A stretch of DNA of 27,511 nt from a virus (taxonomy: Duplodnaviria; Heunggongvirae; Uroviricota; Caudoviricetes), in IMG/VR virus record IMGVR_UViG_2537562015_000010. One strand, given 5' to 3'. Position 1 is the stretch's first letter, and each line of letters begins with the position of its first letter. Below, piece after piece: positions 1,274-24,622 of this stretch. The translations under genes were made by a program, and so were the position numbers. The notes under the pieces are model-generated. The model saw only the letters and a program-made list of their open reading frames with translations. It did not search any database and had not been told where the DNA came from.

Positions 1274-4033
1274 TTATACCTGCGCCACGTTATACCATGT
1301 CCCGTTAATGTATTTCTGAACCGGTCTGTAATATACACCACCAATGTTATCGGCAGAGTTTGAGCCGGTATCCTGAACAATAATGCCGGAATATACACAC
1401 CCGGACGGTGCCTGATGTGTCCATGTCATGCCATTGTTCGCAGGTTTGTATGTGGCAGCACCACCAAGCCGGATATCCCGGACATAGCGGGAATCAAAGT
1501 TACCGTAATCCGAGGGATTAACACGCCCCGTAATATTTATGGTTTTATTACTTTGAATACTTCCCGAGACAAAGCGCATAACATGGACGCTATTAGCATA
1601 AACATCCAGATTACCATCACCATTTTGTTTAAAGCCCGTGTCATTATCACCCAAAACAATCGAATTACCGCCAAGAGCACTGGATGTTCCTATACCCAGA
1701 GCACCATTCAATTGACCACCAGATAACGGCAGTGCACCGACATCTCCCGCTGTAGGTTTTCGCGTTGTGGTATAAAACTCAGACCAGTCAGCCTCGAATC
1801 CGTAACCGTCACGAGCAGAACGATAAAAAATACCGCCGTTCTTATAATTAACGCGGAACTGGGCGGCGGGACAACTTCCTTCACCGATATTAAAATGAAG
1901 AATTAACGTTGATGCCCCACCAGTAGTTGCGTTATAGGCTCCGCTACTCCAGTTCCACCCAACGGCTTTATCATTCGCAACGGTGTCTCCTGTTTTTCCT
2001 GAGGCAAATGCACCAATATTTTTCGGCGTCAGGTTAATATCTGATGTTCCATCAAACGAAACGTTATTAATTTTACGGGCTGTTTTCAGCTTTGTTGCTG
2101 TCGCCGCATTGCCGGACAGTTCACCAGAAAGGCCAGCACTGAATGTCTGTTTCGCGCCCCATGTCTGGGCTTCGTCAATGATTGGTACTCGTCTTGCTGT
2201 GATCGTGCGGCTTCCCGGATTTCCTGAAATACGCACCATAAAAAATCGGTAGTTCGCTTTACTTACAGTGCTGCGCCATACATGCATTGAGCGCCCCGTA
2301 CCGGAATCATCACTCGGACCAACTGCGATGTTTATCAGGTTGCCATCAATGACGCCCCAGTCCATACCGTCGGGAATGTTGGTCATGTTATCAAGCCGAA
2401 CGGTTATCAGACTGCCCGGCACAAAGTCGTGGGTCTGCCAGTCCAGGCTGGTGAGCTTTGCCACTGCACCGCCGATACCCAGATTCAGGGGAAGTGAATA
2501 CGAGGTGTAGACTTCCCGCCATTCGCTCCACGAGCTGCCGGTATAGACGCGCTCAAACGTGCGACCTTTAAGGGTTGCACCTGTTCCGGCAGTTGTATAA
2601 CGCTGCCATACGTTAACACCATCAAAGCGCCTCAACACTTCCAGAATACCGAGGACTGTCACGCCGTTTCCGTCCAGTATTGGACCGTTGGTCGCTTTAC
2701 CTGTAACGCTGTAAATACCTGGTGAAGTCACATCATTCAAATCCCCGTCGTAATAACGACTCTCTGACTGATGACCGACTCTTAACCACGGTTCCCACTG
2801 CGGATTTGATGCATCCCAGCTTGCCGCAAGGCAGCGGACATACATATTTCCACGACGAGTGGTATAACGTTGCGTTCTTCCATAATTCCCGCCTTCGAGG
2901 ATCTCAAGCGTCCCCTGAGCAAAGCCGCCTTCCTCTGGATAATTGCGTTCATATGAAGCTATAGCCGAGCTACTGTTACGCCATAAACCAAGATGCTCAG
3001 CGGCTCCAAGCGTATTCAGGTCTATAGTCGTACTCAAAGGGCGGGTAGCTGATTGAGTGTGACGCCATACGCCCCACGGACCATCAGTGCCATTCCACTT
3101 ATTGGCGAGTCTGCGTATGTATACATTGCCGTCTCTCGTGATAAAACGTTGCGTGCCTGCAAAATTGCCAGCTGCAAAAACCTCAAGCACACCGACAGCA
3201 TTATCTTCCGGGAAATTTTTCTCCAGTGTTGCGTTGGTGGATGTTGCTTTAGACCAGATGCCAAGATAAGCCTTAACGGGACCAAATGTATTCAAGTCAG
3301 CATCAAGCGGCATTTCGCCATTGTTTTTCATAAACGTCAGGCTGGTAACGCCAACATTGTCCAGAAAAGCGCCCTTATCTGGAATATCGCCACCGTTCCG
3401 GTCTTTCTGCATACGTTTTTCAGCATTGTCATAGGCTGCTTTTACTGCCTTTGGCGTTGCCGCCAGCTCTTCACTGGTGCTGTTTGTTGCGCTACTTAAC
3501 TGAGTAAAACCTTTTTCTGTCAGCGTGGCGTCAGGATGGCGGCGGGATTGCTCATGCTCTGCGATTTTGTCATCGACGTAATCCTGCGTCGCCATCACTG
3601 TGCTGGCATCAATACTCAGCTCAACGGACGCTACGTTGCTGACAGTAATAACCATGCGGCAGGTCTGCGCGCGCCCGGAGCCTTCAGCGAGTTCAGGCTT
3701 ATAGCTTTCCGCCATGTTAGCGACCGCAATCAGTGTTCCGGCATCGTCATACAGACCCAGCTCACGCATCCAGAAGCCGCCCACTTCTGGCGGTACAACC
3801 AGTTCAGCCACGATATAGTTTTTATTCTTGTTATCCACGCTGACTTTATTCAGAGCGTGACGCCAGACCTCATGCACCAGTTTCGTCTGACCGGCATCCG
3901 GCACCGGCAATTTGCCATTACCGTCACCCACGGCCATTGCAGACAGAGTTACTTTTTTCCCGCCGGGGACAGTGGCGGCTGCCAGCTTCGCGGCTCCGGC
4001 AGTAGTGATAACGGTTTTAAATTTCGTGCTCAT
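1274..4033 (-). CDS. H: Tail fibre protein (P2 gpH-like N-terminus, long mosaic C-terminus)
   Basis: 919-aa ORF; N-terminal region MSTKFKTVITTAGAAKLAAATVPGGKKVTLSAMAVGDG resembles the gpH baseplate-attachment domain; ATG at 4031-4033; three internal tandem ~60-aa repeats. Confidence 0.85.
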   Translation of the reverse strand: MSTKFKTVITTAGAAKLAAATVPGGKKVTLSAMAVGDGNGKLPVPDAGQTKLVHEVWRHALNKVSVDNKNKNYIVAELVVPPEVGGFWMRELGLYDDAGTLIAVANMAESYKPELAEGSGRAQTCRMVITVSNVASVELSIDASTVMATQDYVDDKIAEHEQSRRHPDATLTEKGFTQLSSATNSTSEELAATPKAVKAAYDNAEKRMQKDRNGGDIPDKGAFLDNVGVTSLTFMKNNGEMPLDADLNTFGPVKAYLGIWSKATSTNATLEKNFPEDNAVGVLEVFAAGNFAGTQRFITRDGNVYIRRLANKWNGTDGPWGVWRHTQSATRPLSTTIDLNTLGAAEHLGLWRNSSSAIASYERNYPEEGGFAQGTLEILEGGNYGRTQRYTTRRGNMYVRCLAASWDASNPQWEPWLRVGHQSESRYYDGDLNDVTSPGIYSVTGKATNGPILDGNGVTVLGILEVLRRFDGVNVWQRYTTAGTGATLKGRTFERVYTGSSWSEWREVYTSYSLPLNLGIGGAVAKLTSLDWQTHDFVPGSLITVRLDNMTNIPDGMDWGVIDGNLINIAVGPSDDSGTGRSMHVWRSTVSKANYRFFMVRISGNPGSRTITARRVPIIDEAQTWGAKQTFSAGLSGELSGNAATATKLKTARKINNVSFDGTSDINLTPKNIGAFASGKTGDTVANDKAVGWNWSSGAYNATTGGASTLILHFNIGEGSCPAAQFRVNYKNGGIFYRSARDGYGFEADWSEFYTTTRKPTAGDVGALPLSGGQLNGALGIGTSSALGGNSIVLGDNDTGFKQNGDGNLDVYANSVHVMRFVSGSIQSNKTINITGRVNPSDYGNFDSRYVRDIRLGGAATYKPANNGMTWTHQAPSGCVYSGIIVQDTGSNSADNIGGVYYRPVQKYINGTWYNVAQV

Positions 4034-17905: not shown

Positions 17906-18865
17906 TTACTCCTTGTCCATTGCGTACAGCCCATTAACCAGAGCAAACTGTGGCACCCCGTCCGCGATGAAAGTCGCATTAACTCCGCAGGCTTCGCGGA
18001 TAGCGGGTGCCACAATCTCCGCCCCGCCACCGACAACCATCACCCGTCCGTAACCCGAAAAACCCGCCAGCGCGCGGATCACGCGTTGTTTCAGTGTTTC
18101 TTCCTTTTCACGAATAACCGCCATCAGGCTGGCGTAATGCGCGTCATTGTGGATGTGCTGGCGCAGCCAGGCTTCATCATGGCGATGTTCGATAATGGTA
18201 TTGGCGATGTGGTGACTGGTGCGCATACCGTTAGTGGCCATCACCGACAGTACGGCATCGGCCATCAGAGAAACGCCTACGTGTGGATCGCAAAACACCT
18301 GGCTGATACCTGCCAGTTGCCCCTGAACCTTTGCCACATCCAGCGTGGTTCCGCCCAAATCCACAATCAGCAGGGATTCAAACGGACTCATGTCAGCCAG
18401 TGCCTTAAAGCCAGCCGGAATGGATTCAGGCATAACCCGCACGTTACGGATAGTGAATGCTTCGCCGTTCTGGTACTCCACCGGGCGCATGACGTTCGCT
18501 TTTTTGCGGTTGATGTTGGCCATGTCCGGCTGTGCGTTTGTGTCGAAATATTCGCTCAGTGGCAGGGTGACAACCACATCCACCTCCTGTGGTGTGATGC
18601 CTGATTTGACCAGCGCGTGATGAATGGCAATGACATTCACATCGCTGTACTGGTATTGCGTGTCGGTCGTCTGGACAAAGCGATCGCTGACCGGATCAAA
18701 ACCATAGCGCACGCCATCAAGCATGTAGTTCGCGGGCTGCGTGCCACCGAACGGCGCAGACCATTCCGACTTGAAGCTGTTCGGGCTGATGGCGTTGCGG
18801 CGTTCGCCGTTCTCAGTCCATGCCAGCTTGATGTTGGTGGAGCCGTCATCGATACAAATTTTCAT
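17906..18865 (-). CDS. parM: ParM/StbA-like actin-type segregation ATPase
   Basis: 319 aa; N-terminus MKICIDDGSTNIKLAW...ISPNSFK...YQYSDVNVIAIHHAL resembles R1 ParM (MLVFIDDGSTNIKLQW...); ATG at 18863-18865 with AAGGA upstream. Confidence 0.8.
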   Translation of the reverse strand: MKICIDDGSTNIKLAWTENGERRNAISPNSFKSEWSAPFGGTQPANYMLDGVRYGFDPVSDRFVQTTDTQYQYSDVNVIAIHHALVKSGITPQEVDVVVTLPLSEYFDTNAQPDMANINRKKANVMRPVEYQNGEAFTIRNVRVMPESIPAGFKALADMSPFESLLIVDLGGTTLDVAKVQGQLAGISQVFCDPHVGVSLMADAVLSVMATNGMRTSHHIANTIIEHRHDEAWLRQHIHNDAHYASLMAVIREKEETLKQRVIRALAGFSGYGRVMVVGGGAEIVAPAIREACGVNATFIADGVPQFALVNGLYAMDKE

Positions 18866-21782: not shown

Positions 21783-22168
21783 GGCTGGTATCCCGTCACG
21801 CGCTGCCACTCCTGCGAGAAGATGGCGGAAAGGCGGTTAAATTCAGCGGTGTATTCACTCAGCGAGGCACACCCGCCAGCAGTGCGATGCGCCAGCATTG
21901 CCGCGAATACGGAGGCCGGGGAGTCGTAATACGCCAGCAGTGATTCGCCGTGTGGTGTCAGGCAGTGCAACGCCAGCCCGTGTGGTGTGAAGTCCACGCG
22001 GTAGCAGTCGTCTACTGTGAAATAAAGGGTGTCCACATTCTCCGGTTTTGTAGTGCGTGCTCTGTTGTCACGACCACGGATATAAAGATCAAATAATCCC
22101 TGAAGAACGGGAGCCAGACGGGTGTCCTGTGTGCGCACCCATCTTGTGAAGTCATGAGCGTCAATCAT
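21779..22168 (-). CDS. Hypothetical early protein
   Basis: ORF coupled to gpA by an ATGA overlap; first ATG at 22166-22168 (the ORF track begins at TTG 22198); no recognisable motif. Confidence 0.4.
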   Translation of the reverse strand: MIDAHDFTRWVRTQDTRLAPVLQGLFDLYIRGRDNRARTTKPENVDTLYFTVDDCYRVDFTPHGLALHCLTPHGESLLAYYDSPASVFAAMLAHRTAGGCASLSEYTAEFNRLSAIFSQEWQRVTGYQP

Positions 22169-22240
22169 GCTGCAATTCTCTTTACTACAGATGTGCAAAG
22201 GCCTCCCGCCGCAAGGTGCAGGAAAGGCCCGGAACAGGAA

Positions 22241-22471
22241 TTAATGGAGTTTGTTTTGCTGCTGGATGAGCTGCTGAAGCTCGCGCAGATCATCCGCCAG
22301 ATAGCTGAAAACAGCGGATGAATAGAGGTTTGAAAGTTCGCAGCTACGCTCATGCAGCATATTGATGTGCATGATTTTAGCGACGCGGAATGCGCGGGAA
22401 AGTCTGCGGTTGATTTCAGTCTGGATGTGACGACGCTCCGCGATAGCGCGGTGCTGTTTGCGGTTTGCCAT
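22241..22471 (-). CDS. Hypothetical 76-aa basic protein
   Basis: ATG at 22469-22471 with AAGAGG upstream; arginine-rich N-terminus; a single Cys, so not an Ogr-type zinc finger. Confidence 0.4.
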   Translation of the reverse strand: MANRKQHRAIAERRHIQTEINRRLSRAFRVAKIMHINMLHERSCELSNLYSSAVFSYLADDLRELQQLIQQQNKLH

Positions 22472-22838
22472 GATATGTGGCCTCTTGTAGTAAGTTGTGA
22501 AAACTCACCATCCAGAGGTTCCAAGCTCGGGGTGGTGAGACGTACAGGGTTGGAACTACCGGCTACAAGAGATCCCGGCCCGACCGAAATCGGCCCCGTA
22601 CGCCCCACCATAATTCGTGTGCGAAAAAGACGTGGCAATACAGTACGCACAAAAAAACCGCTGGCGCGGTTGTGCGCTCTTGTAGTCTGCGGGGTTCCAA
22701 TCCCGGCACCCGTTTTATGAGGTGCAGCGAAAATGTAACCTGACTGATTGCGGCATGGCAAGCGGTTTTTTTGTGAGAACGGCATACTAAAAAATCCTGA
22801 TACTGCTCCGGCCAGCGGTTTTCACTGGCCGGGTTTAA
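22472..22838 (-). promoter_or_regulatory. Structured non-coding leader with repeated CTCTTGTAG motifs and terminator-like hairpins
   Basis: CTCTTGTAG at 22483-22491 and 22677-22685 with its reverse complement at 22563-22571; GGTTCCAA / TTGGAAC pairing inside; minus-strand hairpin plus U7 at about 22650-22672; strong hairpin at about 22810-22835. Confidence 0.35.
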
Positions 22839-23669
22839 TTACTTCACCGGAACAAACGGAACAGCGGTGTTACTGGTCATGTATTGCGGTAGCGTGCCGT
22901 TCCATTTGTTAATCGCTTCCAGCTCCATAACGCCGGGATTCTGGCGCAGAGCTTCACCGCGTAAACGAATGGCGTCGGCTTCAGCCTGGGCTTTTGTGCG
23001 AATGGCATCGGCCTGTCCGGCTGCTTCTGCGCGTAGCATGTTGGCTTCTGCTTCACGCTGCTTGACTTCCTGTTCGCGTTGCAGGGTTTTCTGGTTTGCC
23101 GTGACTTTGGCATTAATGCTGTCGATAACGGTTGGCGGGTATTCCGGCTTACCCACATAAGAGAGGCTCATTACCTGAATGCCGATAGGTGTCATTTCTG
23201 CCTGAATGTCTTTAAGTGCTGAATCCAGCAGTTCAGACTTGCCACCGTCGATAAATTTATCGGTGGTCATTTTGCTGGCCAGTCGGTTGAGTGCGTCGGC
23301 GATCTTCTGGCGCAGGTCAGTGTCGGTAATGTCATCCACGCCTTTGCGGTAGGTCTGAAACACTGTAGTAACTTTGGATGGATCAACCTTGTAGGCCACA
23401 CCGATGTGATAGCCGATGGTTGTGCCGTCACTCATCTGAAAGCTGAACGGCTCATCGTAGGTCTTCATTTGTTTGAAGGTCGGGAAGATGTAAACCTCGG
23501 TATTCCAGCCAGTCCAGTAGCGACCAACGCCAACCACTTCGCCAACGCCTTTGTCGTCGCCCAGCTTGTTGACTTTGATGCCCACATTACCTGGCTCAAC
23601 GCGATCGCAGCCAACCAGCAGGATGGCGGCAAAAAGCGGGAGAATCTGAAAGAGTCTGAATTTCTTCAT
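22839..23669 (-). CDS. SPFH/band-7 (prohibitin/HflC-like) lipoprotein
   Basis: 276 aa; signal peptide with lipobox LLVGC; central SPFH-like region and a C-terminal Ala/Glu/Arg-rich coiled coil (QREAEANMLRAEAAGQADAIRTKAQAEADAIRLRGEA). Confidence 0.7.
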   Translation of the reverse strand: MKKFRLFQILPLFAAILLVGCDRVEPGNVGIKVNKLGDDKGVGEVVGVGRYWTGWNTEVYIFPTFKQMKTYDEPFSFQMSDGTTIGYHIGVAYKVDPSKVTTVFQTYRKGVDDITDTDLRQKIADALNRLASKMTTDKFIDGGKSELLDSALKDIQAEMTPIGIQVMSLSYVGKPEYPPTVIDSINAKVTANQKTLQREQEVKQREAEANMLRAEAAGQADAIRTKAQAEADAIRLRGEALRQNPGVMELEAINKWNGTLPQYMTSNTAVPFVPVK

Positions 23670-23869
23670 TGTTTAATTTCCTTGATGTACTTACTGAAAA
23701 GGCGAACAACGCCTGCCGGGTACAGCATGGCAATGAAAATGCCCAGCAATACCAGGAAGGAGCTGTCTGATGAAATCATTCGGGGGAGTAGTCCTGCATA
23801 CAGAATGAGAGAAACGAGGACGCATACCAGCGCCCACATGTATGCGCGAAACCAGGTCTTTTTGTTCAT
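23666..23869 (-). CDS. Small two-transmembrane protein coupled to the SPFH lipoprotein
   Basis: 67 aa, two hydrophobic helices (WALVCVLVSLILYAGLL, FLVLLGIFIAMLYPAGVV); ATG at 23867-23869 with AAGGA upstream; 4-nt overlap with the SPFH gene start. Confidence 0.5.
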   Translation of the reverse strand: MNKKTWFRAYMWALVCVLVSLILYAGLLPRMISSDSSFLVLLGIFIAMLYPAGVVRLFSKYIKEIKQ

Positions 23870-23880
23870 ATCGCGGTCCT

Positions 23881-24180
23881 TTACTGGTTAAGGAAGAAAT
23901 CAAAAACCTTGTCGATGCGTTGCAGTAGCTCTCGTTGCATTGCTTCCGGCGTTTCTGGTTCACCAAGCGAACCCAGTGGTGCGCAGAAATCAGCGATTTC
24001 ATGATGGAGCGCCAGGCGAATGGCTGGAGACATGGTTCTGGCGTGCTCCAGCTCATCCAGCAGTGCCAGCACGGCAGACGGCGAGAGCATTGCGCGAAAC
24101 GCCAGTAATTTTTGATGCGTTGCCATTCGTTGCAGGTCAATCGCCAGTTCGCGTAATTCCTGATGGTTGATGGCGCTCAT
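23881..24180 (-). CDS. Hypothetical early protein (99 aa)
   Basis: ATG at 24178-24180 in an ATGA overlap with the upstream gene; no recognisable motif. Confidence 0.4.
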   Translation of the reverse strand: MSAINHQELRELAIDLQRMATHQKLLAFRAMLSPSAVLALLDELEHARTMSPAIRLALHHEIADFCAPLGSLGEPETPEAMQRELLQRIDKVFDFFLNQ

Positions 24181-24422
24181 GCTCTGGCTTCCTTCAGTAG
24201 CTGGTTAAACATGTTGGTAAGTGGATTGCCGCACCCGAACGGCATCGGGTTTATCTGGTAAGAAAAGCGACCGCCTGTTTTGCGCTCTTTTCTTATGACT
24301 GAACCGCTGCGCCAGAGTCGGCGTAACTCCGCATTAATGGCTGTGGTTGGGGTATTCAGTGCTGCGGCGATTTCTCCACCGCTACACCCCGGATTGGCGG
24401 CGATATAGTCCAGAATGGTCAT
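24177..24422 (-). CDS. Hypothetical early protein (81 aa), possible winged-helix DNA-binding protein
   Basis: ATG at 24420-24422 in an ATGA overlap; the segment GCSGGEIAAALNTPTTAINAELRRLWRSGSVIR looks like a helix-turn-helix. Confidence 0.4.
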   Translation of the reverse strand: MTILDYIAANPGCSGGEIAAALNTPTTAINAELRRLWRSGSVIRKERKTGGRFSYQINPMPFGCGNPLTNMFNQLLKEARA

Positions 24423-24622
24423 CTGCGTGACTCCTGTACCTGTCGGATAAGGTTCACCCGCACCACATTCGTGGCGCAGAAGTAAGTGCCGTCAGTGAGA
24501 TAGATGTGATGTGCATCCTTTTCTGAACGGTGTTTGTCGATTGTGGTAATCAGGCGTTCGTCGACTTCGTATTCACGTCCTCTGGAGGTAAAACGAACGA
24601 CAGGAAAATGCTTAATTGCCAT
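24419..24622 (-). CDS. Hypothetical early protein (67 aa)
   Basis: ATG at 24620-24622 preceded by AAGGAGG. Confidence 0.45.
   Translation of the reverse strand: MAIKHFPVVRFTSRGREYEVDERLITTIDKHRSEKDAHHIYLTDGTYFCATNVVRVNLIRQVQESRR

Follow-up and report, generated by a model that had tools for sequence, protein, structure and literature searches.

An N4 gp19/gp20-type module, pairing an SPFH lipoprotein with a two-helix membrane protein, in the early region of a P88-like prophage

What use does a phage of the P2 family have for a membrane scaffold protein? The question is raised by IMG/VR record IMGVR_UViG_2537562015_000010, a 27,511-nt stretch of viral DNA (hereafter the window) that is a P88-like prophage (genus Xuanwuvirus, family Peduoviridae) within the P2 family. 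Two minus-strand genes of this prophage, a 276-amino-acid (aa) open reading frame (ORF) encoding an SPFH/Band_7 lipoprotein (22839..23669) and, immediately upstream, a 67-aa ORF encoding a partner that forms a hairpin of two transmembrane (TM) segments (23666..23869), are homologues of gp20 and gp19 of coliphage N4. An initial annotation of the window, made from the sequence alone, regarded them as probable lysogenic-conversion genes at the distal end of the early operon. The reading that we favor, at a probability of roughly 35%, is that the pair is a mobile module of the N4 gp19/gp20 type whose products, early in lytic development, build a periplasm-facing cage on the inner membrane in which a conserved component of the host membrane, FtsH being the leading candidate, is sequestered.

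The gene pair and its products

We assign the 276-aa protein to the SPFH/Band 7 superfamily on both profile and fold. Pfam Band_7/SPFH (PF01145) matches residues 23-209 (23043..23603, minus strand) with an E value of 7.6e-31 and a score of 107.9 bits, well above the curated cutoff of 23.6, and the protein also matches phrog_200 ("lipoprotein") at 6e-112. Its AlphaFold model (predicted local distance difference test [pLDDT] score, 74) has an alpha/beta SPFH domain of beta-sheet and helices (residues 21-176), followed by a long alanine-rich helix of 65 residues (179-243, assigned by DSSP on the model; 22941..23135, minus strand) and a low-confidence tail, the last 27 residues having a pLDDT of <50 in this monomer model. 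The long helix aligns with the coiled-coil region of HflK and corresponds to the wall-forming coiled coil of SPFH cages. A Foldseek search of the PDB ranked HflC/HflK (7vhq) at the top (1.7e-13 and 3.5e-13), followed by prohibitin, erlin, stomatin, flotillin (1.8e-09), and QmcA (1.4e-07), with a probability of 1.00 for HflK/C, prohibitin, erlin, stomatin, and flotillin. Searching the PDB by sequence returned only HflK (three entries, representing two sequences) and prohibitin-2, and the weak NCBIfam matches were to HflC or HflK in every case. The records of phiP27, Shiga toxin (Stx) phages, and other phages label such proteins "serine protease"; we rejected this label because Band_7 is the sole significant Pfam domain and no protease domain was found.

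The N terminus of the SPFH protein reads MKKFRLFQILPLFAAILLVG-C-D. A basic, hydrophobic signal peptide (residues 1-20) leads into the lipobox L-V-G-C21, with Asp at position +2; by sequence and alignment, the whole element occupies 23604..23669 (minus strand), with Cys21 at 23607-23609 and Asp22 at 23604-23606. Cys21 and Asp22 are each conserved at a level of at least 90% in a 14-sequence alignment. Under the Lol sorting rule of Escherichia coli, Asp at +2 keeps lipoproteins in the inner membrane, and the signal peptide, lipobox, and Asp+2 together predict a periplasmic location for the SPFH domain. The identification of this protein as an SPFH-fold lipoprotein, which the initial annotation had left open to disproof by profile searches, is thus upheld by the Pfam match (7.6e-31), by the Foldseek ranking of HflC/HflK, and by the lipobox LVGC21, and the profile searches yielded no such disproof.

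The 67-aa partner has two hydrophobic peaks, at approximately residues 9-28 and 38-55, separated by a 9-residue loop, and its termini are basic (+3 at the N terminus, +4 at the C terminus). AlphaFold models it as a helical hairpin (pLDDT, 84), and its predicted topology is N-in/C-in, P29-RMISSDSS forming a short loop in the periplasm. Its PHROG match is to phrog_1130 ("membrane protein") at 1.3e-22; none of the Pfam models matched the partner family. A partner profile run against 1.84 billion cluster representatives recovered about 699 small stand-alone proteins, the best 150 of which are 36 to 89 aa long and therefore have no room for a fused NfeD or other domain. The family shares the motif YG-x3-P-x-[LM]-[IV]-S-x-x-[DS]-[ST]-x-x-V-x-x-G...P, and the loop motif is kept in distant representatives. 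Kinship with NfeD was considered and rejected (no match to Pfam NfeD, PF01957, at E values up to 0.1, two helices only, and an OB [oligonucleotide/oligosaccharide-binding] fold that is too large), and a match to RseC_MucC (E value of 0.032, below cutoff) was treated as noise arising from transmembrane composition.

By sequence inspection, the partner's stop codon and the start of the SPFH gene share 4 nt (ATGA), and an AAGGA Shine-Dalgarno motif precedes each of the two genes. This overlap, the hydropathy profile, and the AlphaFold hairpin agree with the earlier description of the partner as a translationally coupled two-TM protein. Comparison of P88-like alleles shows purifying selection on both genes, the ratio of nonsynonymous to synonymous substitution (dN/dS) being 0.21 in the partner gene and 0.025 in the SPFH gene. 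The gene pair is real, and its SPFH fold, lipobox, two-TM hairpin, and coupling are established here, as are the borders of the cassette that carries it (see below).

Relatives of the pair across phages

We next compared the pair with its homologues in other phages, of which those of N4 share both family and order. N4 gp20 (278 aa) is 61.5% identical to the SPFH protein over its full length (tblastn), and gp19 (68 aa) is about the same length as the window partner, shares its two-TM pattern and loop motif, and is matched by the partner hidden Markov model (HMM) at an E value of 1.4e-19. The gene order is the same, with gp19 and gp20 overlapping by 8 nt, and the window pair is therefore of the gp19/gp20 type (PHROG 1130 plus PHROG 200) by both family matches and gene order. 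N4 differs in being a virulent phage and in the +2 residue of gp20, which is Tyr, with Asp at +3, rather than the Asp+2 found here. The N4 pair lies directly downstream of the RNAP2 gene and a gene for a 32-kDa protein, in what we take to be the N4 middle region. We found no published function for N4 gp19 or gp20, and homology therefore yields no mechanism. Apart from one paper on Pasteurella multocida PM0222 (PMC9872710), our literature search turned up no work on the function of any phage SPFH protein or of N4 gp19/gp20, and a phage genomics paper of 2026 states that why a phage genome carries an SPFH lipoprotein "remains unclear" (PMC13239085).

The initial annotation had suggested checking whether the two genes co-occur in other prophages, and they do. 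We sampled 80 viral contigs and 11 bacterial genomes with an SPFH relative, plus P88, phiP27, and Cyrano; a partner homologue lies upstream on the same strand at 94/94 SPFH loci, mostly overlapping the SPFH gene or at most 3 nt from it. The partner is also immediately upstream in phiP27 (where it is an unannotated 62-aa ORF), Cyrano, and lambdoid prophages, and the partner HMM matches proteins of SPLA5a, ProddE, and Piffle as well as N4 gp19. In reverse look-ups from three distant partner clusters, every one of the 10 places reached had a 275-aa Band_7 gene overlapping the partner by 4 nt; each of these loci belongs to a lambdoid prophage and lies between the genes for a CI-like repressor and an integrase (the early-left operon). 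Each cassette has one SPFH gene, in the window and at all of the approximately 100 loci inspected.

Several loci depart from this arrangement. In Shigella flexneri and E. coli chromosomes, the partner lies 768 nt upstream of the SPFH gene, with a 768-nt IS1-like element (InsA-like ORF; 3236-4004 in the Shigella flexneri stretch) inserted exactly at the junction, where it alters the C terminus of the partner and uncouples the two genes. In Salmonella phage SPLA5a (Vequintavirinae; 1133-2367), a 54-aa non-membrane ORF separates the partner from the SPFH gene, so tight coupling is not universal. The small gene beside the SPFH gene in DL54, phiEa21-4, Magneto, and cr128 was not recognizable as a member of the partner family.

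By tblastn, the SPFH protein occurs in 412 phage records, many of them from virulent phages. Carriers include N4 and other Schitoviridae, Vequintavirinae, a Desulfovibrio Autographiviridae phage, Bruynoghevirus, and Bcepfunavirus; phiEa21-4-like, phiCbK-like, jumbo, crAss-like, and Lak phages; and, among temperate elements, Stx-converting and phiP27 lambdoid phages, the P1-like RCS47, and SSU5/Cyrano-like plasmid-prophages. The same pair is present on a contig of about 108 kb from Yersinia pestis NCTC5923, and the note on gp20 in the N4 record, "similar to Yersinia pestis protein," may refer to this relative. An N4-like gp19/gp20 pair, its partner close to N4 gp19, also occurs on JANQNF010000027.1, which is labeled "MAG: archaeon" and is probably a misbinned phage contig. 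SPFH identity tracks the host and not the phage lineage: it is 59 to 93% among enterobacterial phages of unrelated families but an N4-like phage of Stenotrophomonas shares only 40% with N4. Both this host tracking and the dN/dS of 0.025 fit a conserved host target. Judged by sequence, the pair belongs to a large and conserved type of two-gene phage module, that of N4 gp19/gp20, whose function is unstudied.

A distribution this broad could also reflect a role in membrane integrity or lysis timing, in which the cage would stabilize the inner membrane in a flotillin-like manner or restrain a holin-like activity of the partner, so that the proton-motive force is kept until programmed lysis or depolarizing abortive-infection effectors are countered. 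A benefit of this kind to any phage of Gram-negative hosts would account for the phages in which the pair is found, and strict 1:1 genetic coupling would suit an effector and its restrainer. Class II holins are small proteins with two TM segments and an N-in/C-in topology, and the partner matches them in size and predicted topology. However, the pair is never in a lysis cassette among the loci inspected, lying instead in early or middle regions; the P2-type lysis genes of the window are presumably elsewhere, about 14 kb from the pair by the P2 map; no holin or antiholin homology was detected in Pfam or PHROG; and toxicity of the partner has no support here. We consider such a role quite unlikely. 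Identity of the partner as a holin was rejected on its early-region position and the lack of detected homology, and a two-component spanin (Rz/Rz1) was rejected on a partner without a periplasmic domain, a lipoprotein with Asp+2 and an SPFH fold, and the same early-region position.

An accessory cassette in the early region

The pair is carried on an inserted cassette of 1,105 nt (22776..23880, minus strand), delimited by blastn against Xuanwuvirus P884B11 and present in P88, which is 94.7% identical to the window over 22500-24200 and has the same two genes annotated as gp11 and gp12. P884B11 has 18 nt in place of the cassette, and window segments 22149-22775 and 23881-24500 match its contiguous DNA (local blastn). 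Of 5,426 complete E. coli genomes searched, 127 have the filled junction and 598 the empty one. In this presence/absence polymorphism between collinear phages, seen both against P884B11 and at the E. coli sites, the cassette resembles a moron; it is a real, well-defined, and ordinary-looking accessory unit. P2 has neither gene, tblastn giving chance-level matches only (best E values of 6.6 for the SPFH protein and 2.3 for the partner). As the initial annotation stated, the pair is absent from canonical P2; it is accessory, and most P88-like prophages lack it as well.

A short direct repeat, ACAAAAA(G/A)ACC, is present at both cassette ends (22776-22790 and 23855-23869), with a related sequence at the P884B11 empty site, which suggests gain or loss through microhomology-mediated recombination. 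Base composition was rejected as a marker of foreign origin, the cassette having 51.2% GC versus 52.2% for the window. Similarity to phiP27 and Stx-converting (Stx2) phages reaches ∼92% DNA identity only in the mature SPFH core (window 22873-23618); outside it, phiP27 and the Stx phages carry a different type of signal peptide, partner gene, and last codons, with partner identity of only 20 to 45%. Restriction of the identity to the mature core places the recombination joints inside the SPFH gene.

Variable sites of this kind invite comparison with dedicated anti-phage defense, including abortive infection, carried by the prophage. P2-family prophages are known carriers of defense cassettes at variable sites, the P2 annotation lists old, tin, and fun(Z) as lysogenic conversion genes blocking other phages, and the pair is itself a variable cassette. 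Against a defense function, PADLOC-DB 2.0 gave no match to the SPFH protein at E values up to 1 and only a marginal, partial match to the partner (PDC-M18B; E value of 0.0078 over 21 residues), neither protein has an enzymatic or sensor domain, virulent phages carry the pair, and in the window it lies inside the early operon, away from the known P2 hotspots. A dedicated defense system is thus highly improbable.

The position of the cassette bears on when its genes are expressed. On the plus strand the window encodes the integrase and a C-like repressor; on the minus strand, leading up to the pair, are Cox, DUF4761, DUF4754, small ORFs, a winged-helix protein, and an Ead-like protein, followed by the partner and the SPFH gene. 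Beyond the SPFH gene on the same strand are a hairpin, isrK, C4, a "derepression" protein, phrog_3237, the 955-aa replication protein A, and ParM. The pair is therefore embedded midway along the leftward early region, within the Cox-side early transcription unit, and not, as first proposed, at the distal end of the early operon, given that isrK, C4, the derepression gene, phrog_3237, gene A, and parM all follow it. Only 11 nt separate the stop codon of the Ead-like gene from the partner ATG; this interval (23870..23880, minus strand) is the 5′ edge of the cassette and carries the partner's Shine-Dalgarno AAGGA, which leaves no room for a promoter. A consensus promoter scan of the coding strand found no match within approximately 1.1 kb upstream of the pair, although the same scan flagged no candidate in the C-cox interval either, where an early promoter is expected, making this a weak negative. 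Applied to phiP27 and an Stx-type contig, this insensitive scan likewise found nothing promoter-like on the coding strand upstream of the pair; the single coding-strand promoter-like match in phiP27 is inside the partner gene.

The Cox-side position, the absence of promoter space, and the homologues in virulent phages point to a role in lytic development, and it is more likely that the pair serves the infected cell than the dormant prophage. The initial annotation had considered the position typical of a lysogenic-conversion gene, by which a prophage-expressed pair would benefit the host through phage resistance, tolerance of envelope stress, or virulence via a surface or vesicle lipoprotein. 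The cassette is polymorphic among P88-like prophages and has its own 3′ hairpin, as might be expected of such a gene. Further, reported transcription covers most of the prophage regions of Citrobacter rodentium in standard growth conditions (PMC6456863), and P. multocida PM0222, a prophage-encoded HflK/C-like protein of the SPFH family (25 to 35 kDa), is made in culture, is found in outer-membrane vesicles, and contributes to virulence, reportedly as a vesicle-borne factor with TLR1/2 signaling (PMC9872710). PM0222, however, is likened to the window protein by description and not by sequence, and Asp+2 predicts the inner membrane and not the surface. The pair is moreover embedded in a repressor-controlled early unit with replication genes downstream, with no promoter space and no promoter match (in the weak scan), and its close homologues are in strictly virulent phages, where conversion is meaningless; a pair retained by virulent phages cannot in general be a lysogenic-conversion function. 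The conversion hypothesis is accordingly very unlikely.

The initial annotation also described strong hairpins after the pair. One of these stands, a 10-bp GC-rich hairpin inside the cassette, 6 nt past the SPFH stop codon (22808..22832, minus strand), predicted by RNA folding at −22.8 kcal/mol (z score of −2.95, with 0/200 shuffles as stable). Its nearest U-run is about 11 nt away and it is absent from the list of minus-strand terminators returned by our scan; it is not a canonical intrinsic terminator. The remaining structure belongs to two small-RNA genes outside the cassette, an isrK-like gene (22651..22725, minus strand; Rfam RF01394, 71.3 bits against a gathering score of 50) and a C4 antisense RNA gene (22528..22615, minus strand; RF01695, 79.2 bits against 45). 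An origin of this structured DNA in a tRNA or attachment site was rejected, as no tRNA was found and the structures are isrK and C4. A promoter-like sequence, TTGCCA-18-TACATT, lies ahead of the isrK-like gene at 22761..22732.

The tandem isrK and C4 genes are followed by the gene for a Pfam "Derepression" protein (22241-22471, minus strand), and the whole stretch resembles a P1 immI-like or Gifsy IsrK-like antirepressor control module placed in a P2-family early region. A 206-aa ORF (22165-22785, minus strand) runs over the isrK/C4 DNA; residues 17-100 match Pfam Phage_ASH at 30.3 bits, and P884B11 annotates this ORF as a "transcriptional regulator." With one protein family and two RNA families assigned to one stretch, at most one of these readings is likely to be right. 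Farther along, the window carries a ParM/StbA actin-like plasmid segregation gene (17906-18865, minus strand; StbA_N, 1.8e-82), next to which P88 annotates a partition protein. Such a gene is unexpected in an integrating P2-like phage with an integrase.

A possible cage on the periplasmic face

Among known SPFH systems, HflK/HflC (7vhq, 7vhp, 7wi3, 9cz2) is the closest match in both structure and sequence; its SPFH domain and long helix are periplasmic, and a similar cage-forming architecture would be expected of the phage protein. HflK/C forms a 24-subunit periplasmic cage. It has an N-terminal TM helix, whereas the phage SPFH protein has a lipoprotein signal with the lipobox LVGC instead, and the phage pair, unlike HflK/C, has a dedicated two-TM partner and is phage-borne. 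Structural work places HflK/C in the periplasm, with its SPFH2 domains holding the periplasmic domains of FtsH (PMC12624060). Lipid anchors on one leaflet replace TM helices in flotillin cages (PMC12624060), although flotillins differ in being eukaryotic, cytoplasmic-face heterodimers that are much longer and are held by palmitoyl/myristoyl groups, not by a bacterial lipoprotein anchor. SPFH-NfeD operons (E. coli QmcA-YbbJ, 8z5g; archaeal stomatin PH1511 with NfeD PH1510) share with the phage pair an SPFH gene with an adjacent, co-directional gene for a small membrane partner. They differ in that the phage partner lacks the NfeD OB-fold domain and the phage SPFH domain is predicted to be periplasmic, whereas theirs is cytoplasmic.

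From these comparisons we infer a topology, a hetero-oligomeric cage, a time of expression, and a client. The 67-aa protein would insert in the inner membrane as a hairpin with both ends cytoplasmic and the short conserved loop periplasmic. The SPFH protein would be exported, lipidated at Cys21, and retained in the inner membrane by Asp+2, with its domain and long helix facing the periplasm. Translational coupling would yield near-equal amounts of the two proteins, which may co-assemble at about 1:1 into an HflK/C-like domed cage, the lipid anchor and the partner hairpin standing in for the transmembrane anchors of HflK/C. We judge it likely that the lipoprotein and hairpin assemble as a cage on the inner membrane, facing the periplasm. 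The module would be transcribed with the early (Cox-side) operon after infection or induction and not from the repressed prophage, and the cage would fence off a patch of membrane and its proteins, as in every solved SPFH assembly. The client of the cage is probably a conserved component of the host inner membrane, with FtsH the leading candidate. HflK/C normally holds the periplasmic domain of FtsH, and capture of this protease by the cage could alter the turnover of membrane and regulatory proteins in the infected cell; we offer this particular client tentatively, and it may well be another protein.

A membrane-anchored pair made early in infection could instead act in superinfection exclusion. 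Of the T4 exclusion proteins, both made early in infection, Imm is small and spans the inner membrane twice, and Sp is periplasmic and membrane anchored; the window pair, made early or at a low level from the prophage, might in like manner block the entry of a second phage's genome at the periplasm or inner membrane. Its architecture of a small two-TM inner-membrane protein with a periplasm-facing anchored protein fits this idea, as do its early- or middle-region position in virulent and temperate phages and the PHROG category of the partner ("moron, auxiliary metabolic gene and host takeover"). T-even phages, which possess Imm and Sp, are also not among the organism names listed for the 412 SPFH records. 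The analogy is functional only: there is no sequence or fold kinship, the T4 genes are neither adjacent nor coupled, and neither window protein is homologous to Imm, Sp, SieA, Cor, or Llp. Known exclusion proteins mostly act only on the route by which phages of their own type enter, yet near-identical SPFH proteins (59 to 93%) occur in P2-like, lambdoid, N4-like, and plasmid-prophage genomes with different entry routes, and a cage of a few tens of nanometers cannot cover the membrane. No exclusion phenotype is known for SPFH pairs, and neither a review of superinfection exclusion nor the literature that we searched ties an SPFH protein to exclusion. We therefore regard exclusion as unlikely.

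Several observations weigh against an early-lytic cage with a conserved host client. Identity of the SPFH protein to HflK/C is only 17 to 18%, its NCBIfam scores (TIGR01932 hflC, 24.8 versus 134.4 bits; TIGR01933 hflK, 22.7 versus 159.4 bits) fall far short of the equivalog level, and the cassette has one SPFH gene where HflK/C comprises two paralogues. The partner is 20 to 45% identical across lineages whose SPFH cores exceed 90% identity, a divergence that one would not expect of a tight, specific interface unless the loop motif, which is conserved, suffices. Homologues in Piffle, DL54, and ProddE have Ser at +2, so inner-membrane retention may not hold across the whole family. Clustering of SPFH identity by host can equally arise by gene exchange among phages that share a host. 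Finally, the insensitive promoter scan leaves some room for expression of the pair in the prophage state, and the HflK/C-like protein of a P. multocida prophage, compared by description only, was detected in cultured lysogens (PMC9872710).

The clients and purpose of most SPFH cages (HflK/C, prohibitin, stomatin, flotillin, erlin) are unclear even though the cages themselves are structurally understood. That a phage protein has this fold is unsurprising in itself; the departure from known SPFH scaffolds would lie in a lipid-anchored, periplasmic, virus-borne form with a two-helix partner that is not NfeD. This compact version, with one lipid-anchored subunit and a 67-aa partner, is under very strong purifying selection and is exchanged among unrelated phages of the same host. 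An early-lytic cage would give a role to a pair annotated only as "lipoprotein" and "membrane protein" (or wrongly as "serine protease") in hundreds of genomes, including those of Stx-converting phages and Yersinia pestis plasmid-prophage relatives. Were the client FtsH, the pair would represent a second phage route, besides lambda CIII, to controlling FtsH. A more sweeping proposal, doubtful as it stands, is that phages ranging from P2-like and lambdoid prophages to N4 and, distantly, crAss-like and Lak phages install a periplasmic-face SPFH nanocage with a two-helix membrane subunit of its own, in effect a membrane compartment made by the phage, early in infection to capture or insulate a conserved host inner-membrane machine such as FtsH; if true, it would describe a widespread, previously unrecognized host-takeover device and the first SPFH cage with an obligate partner other than NfeD. 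The presence of the pair in N4, a tractable model phage, offers a simple system in which to learn what an SPFH cage encloses and what need a virus has of it.

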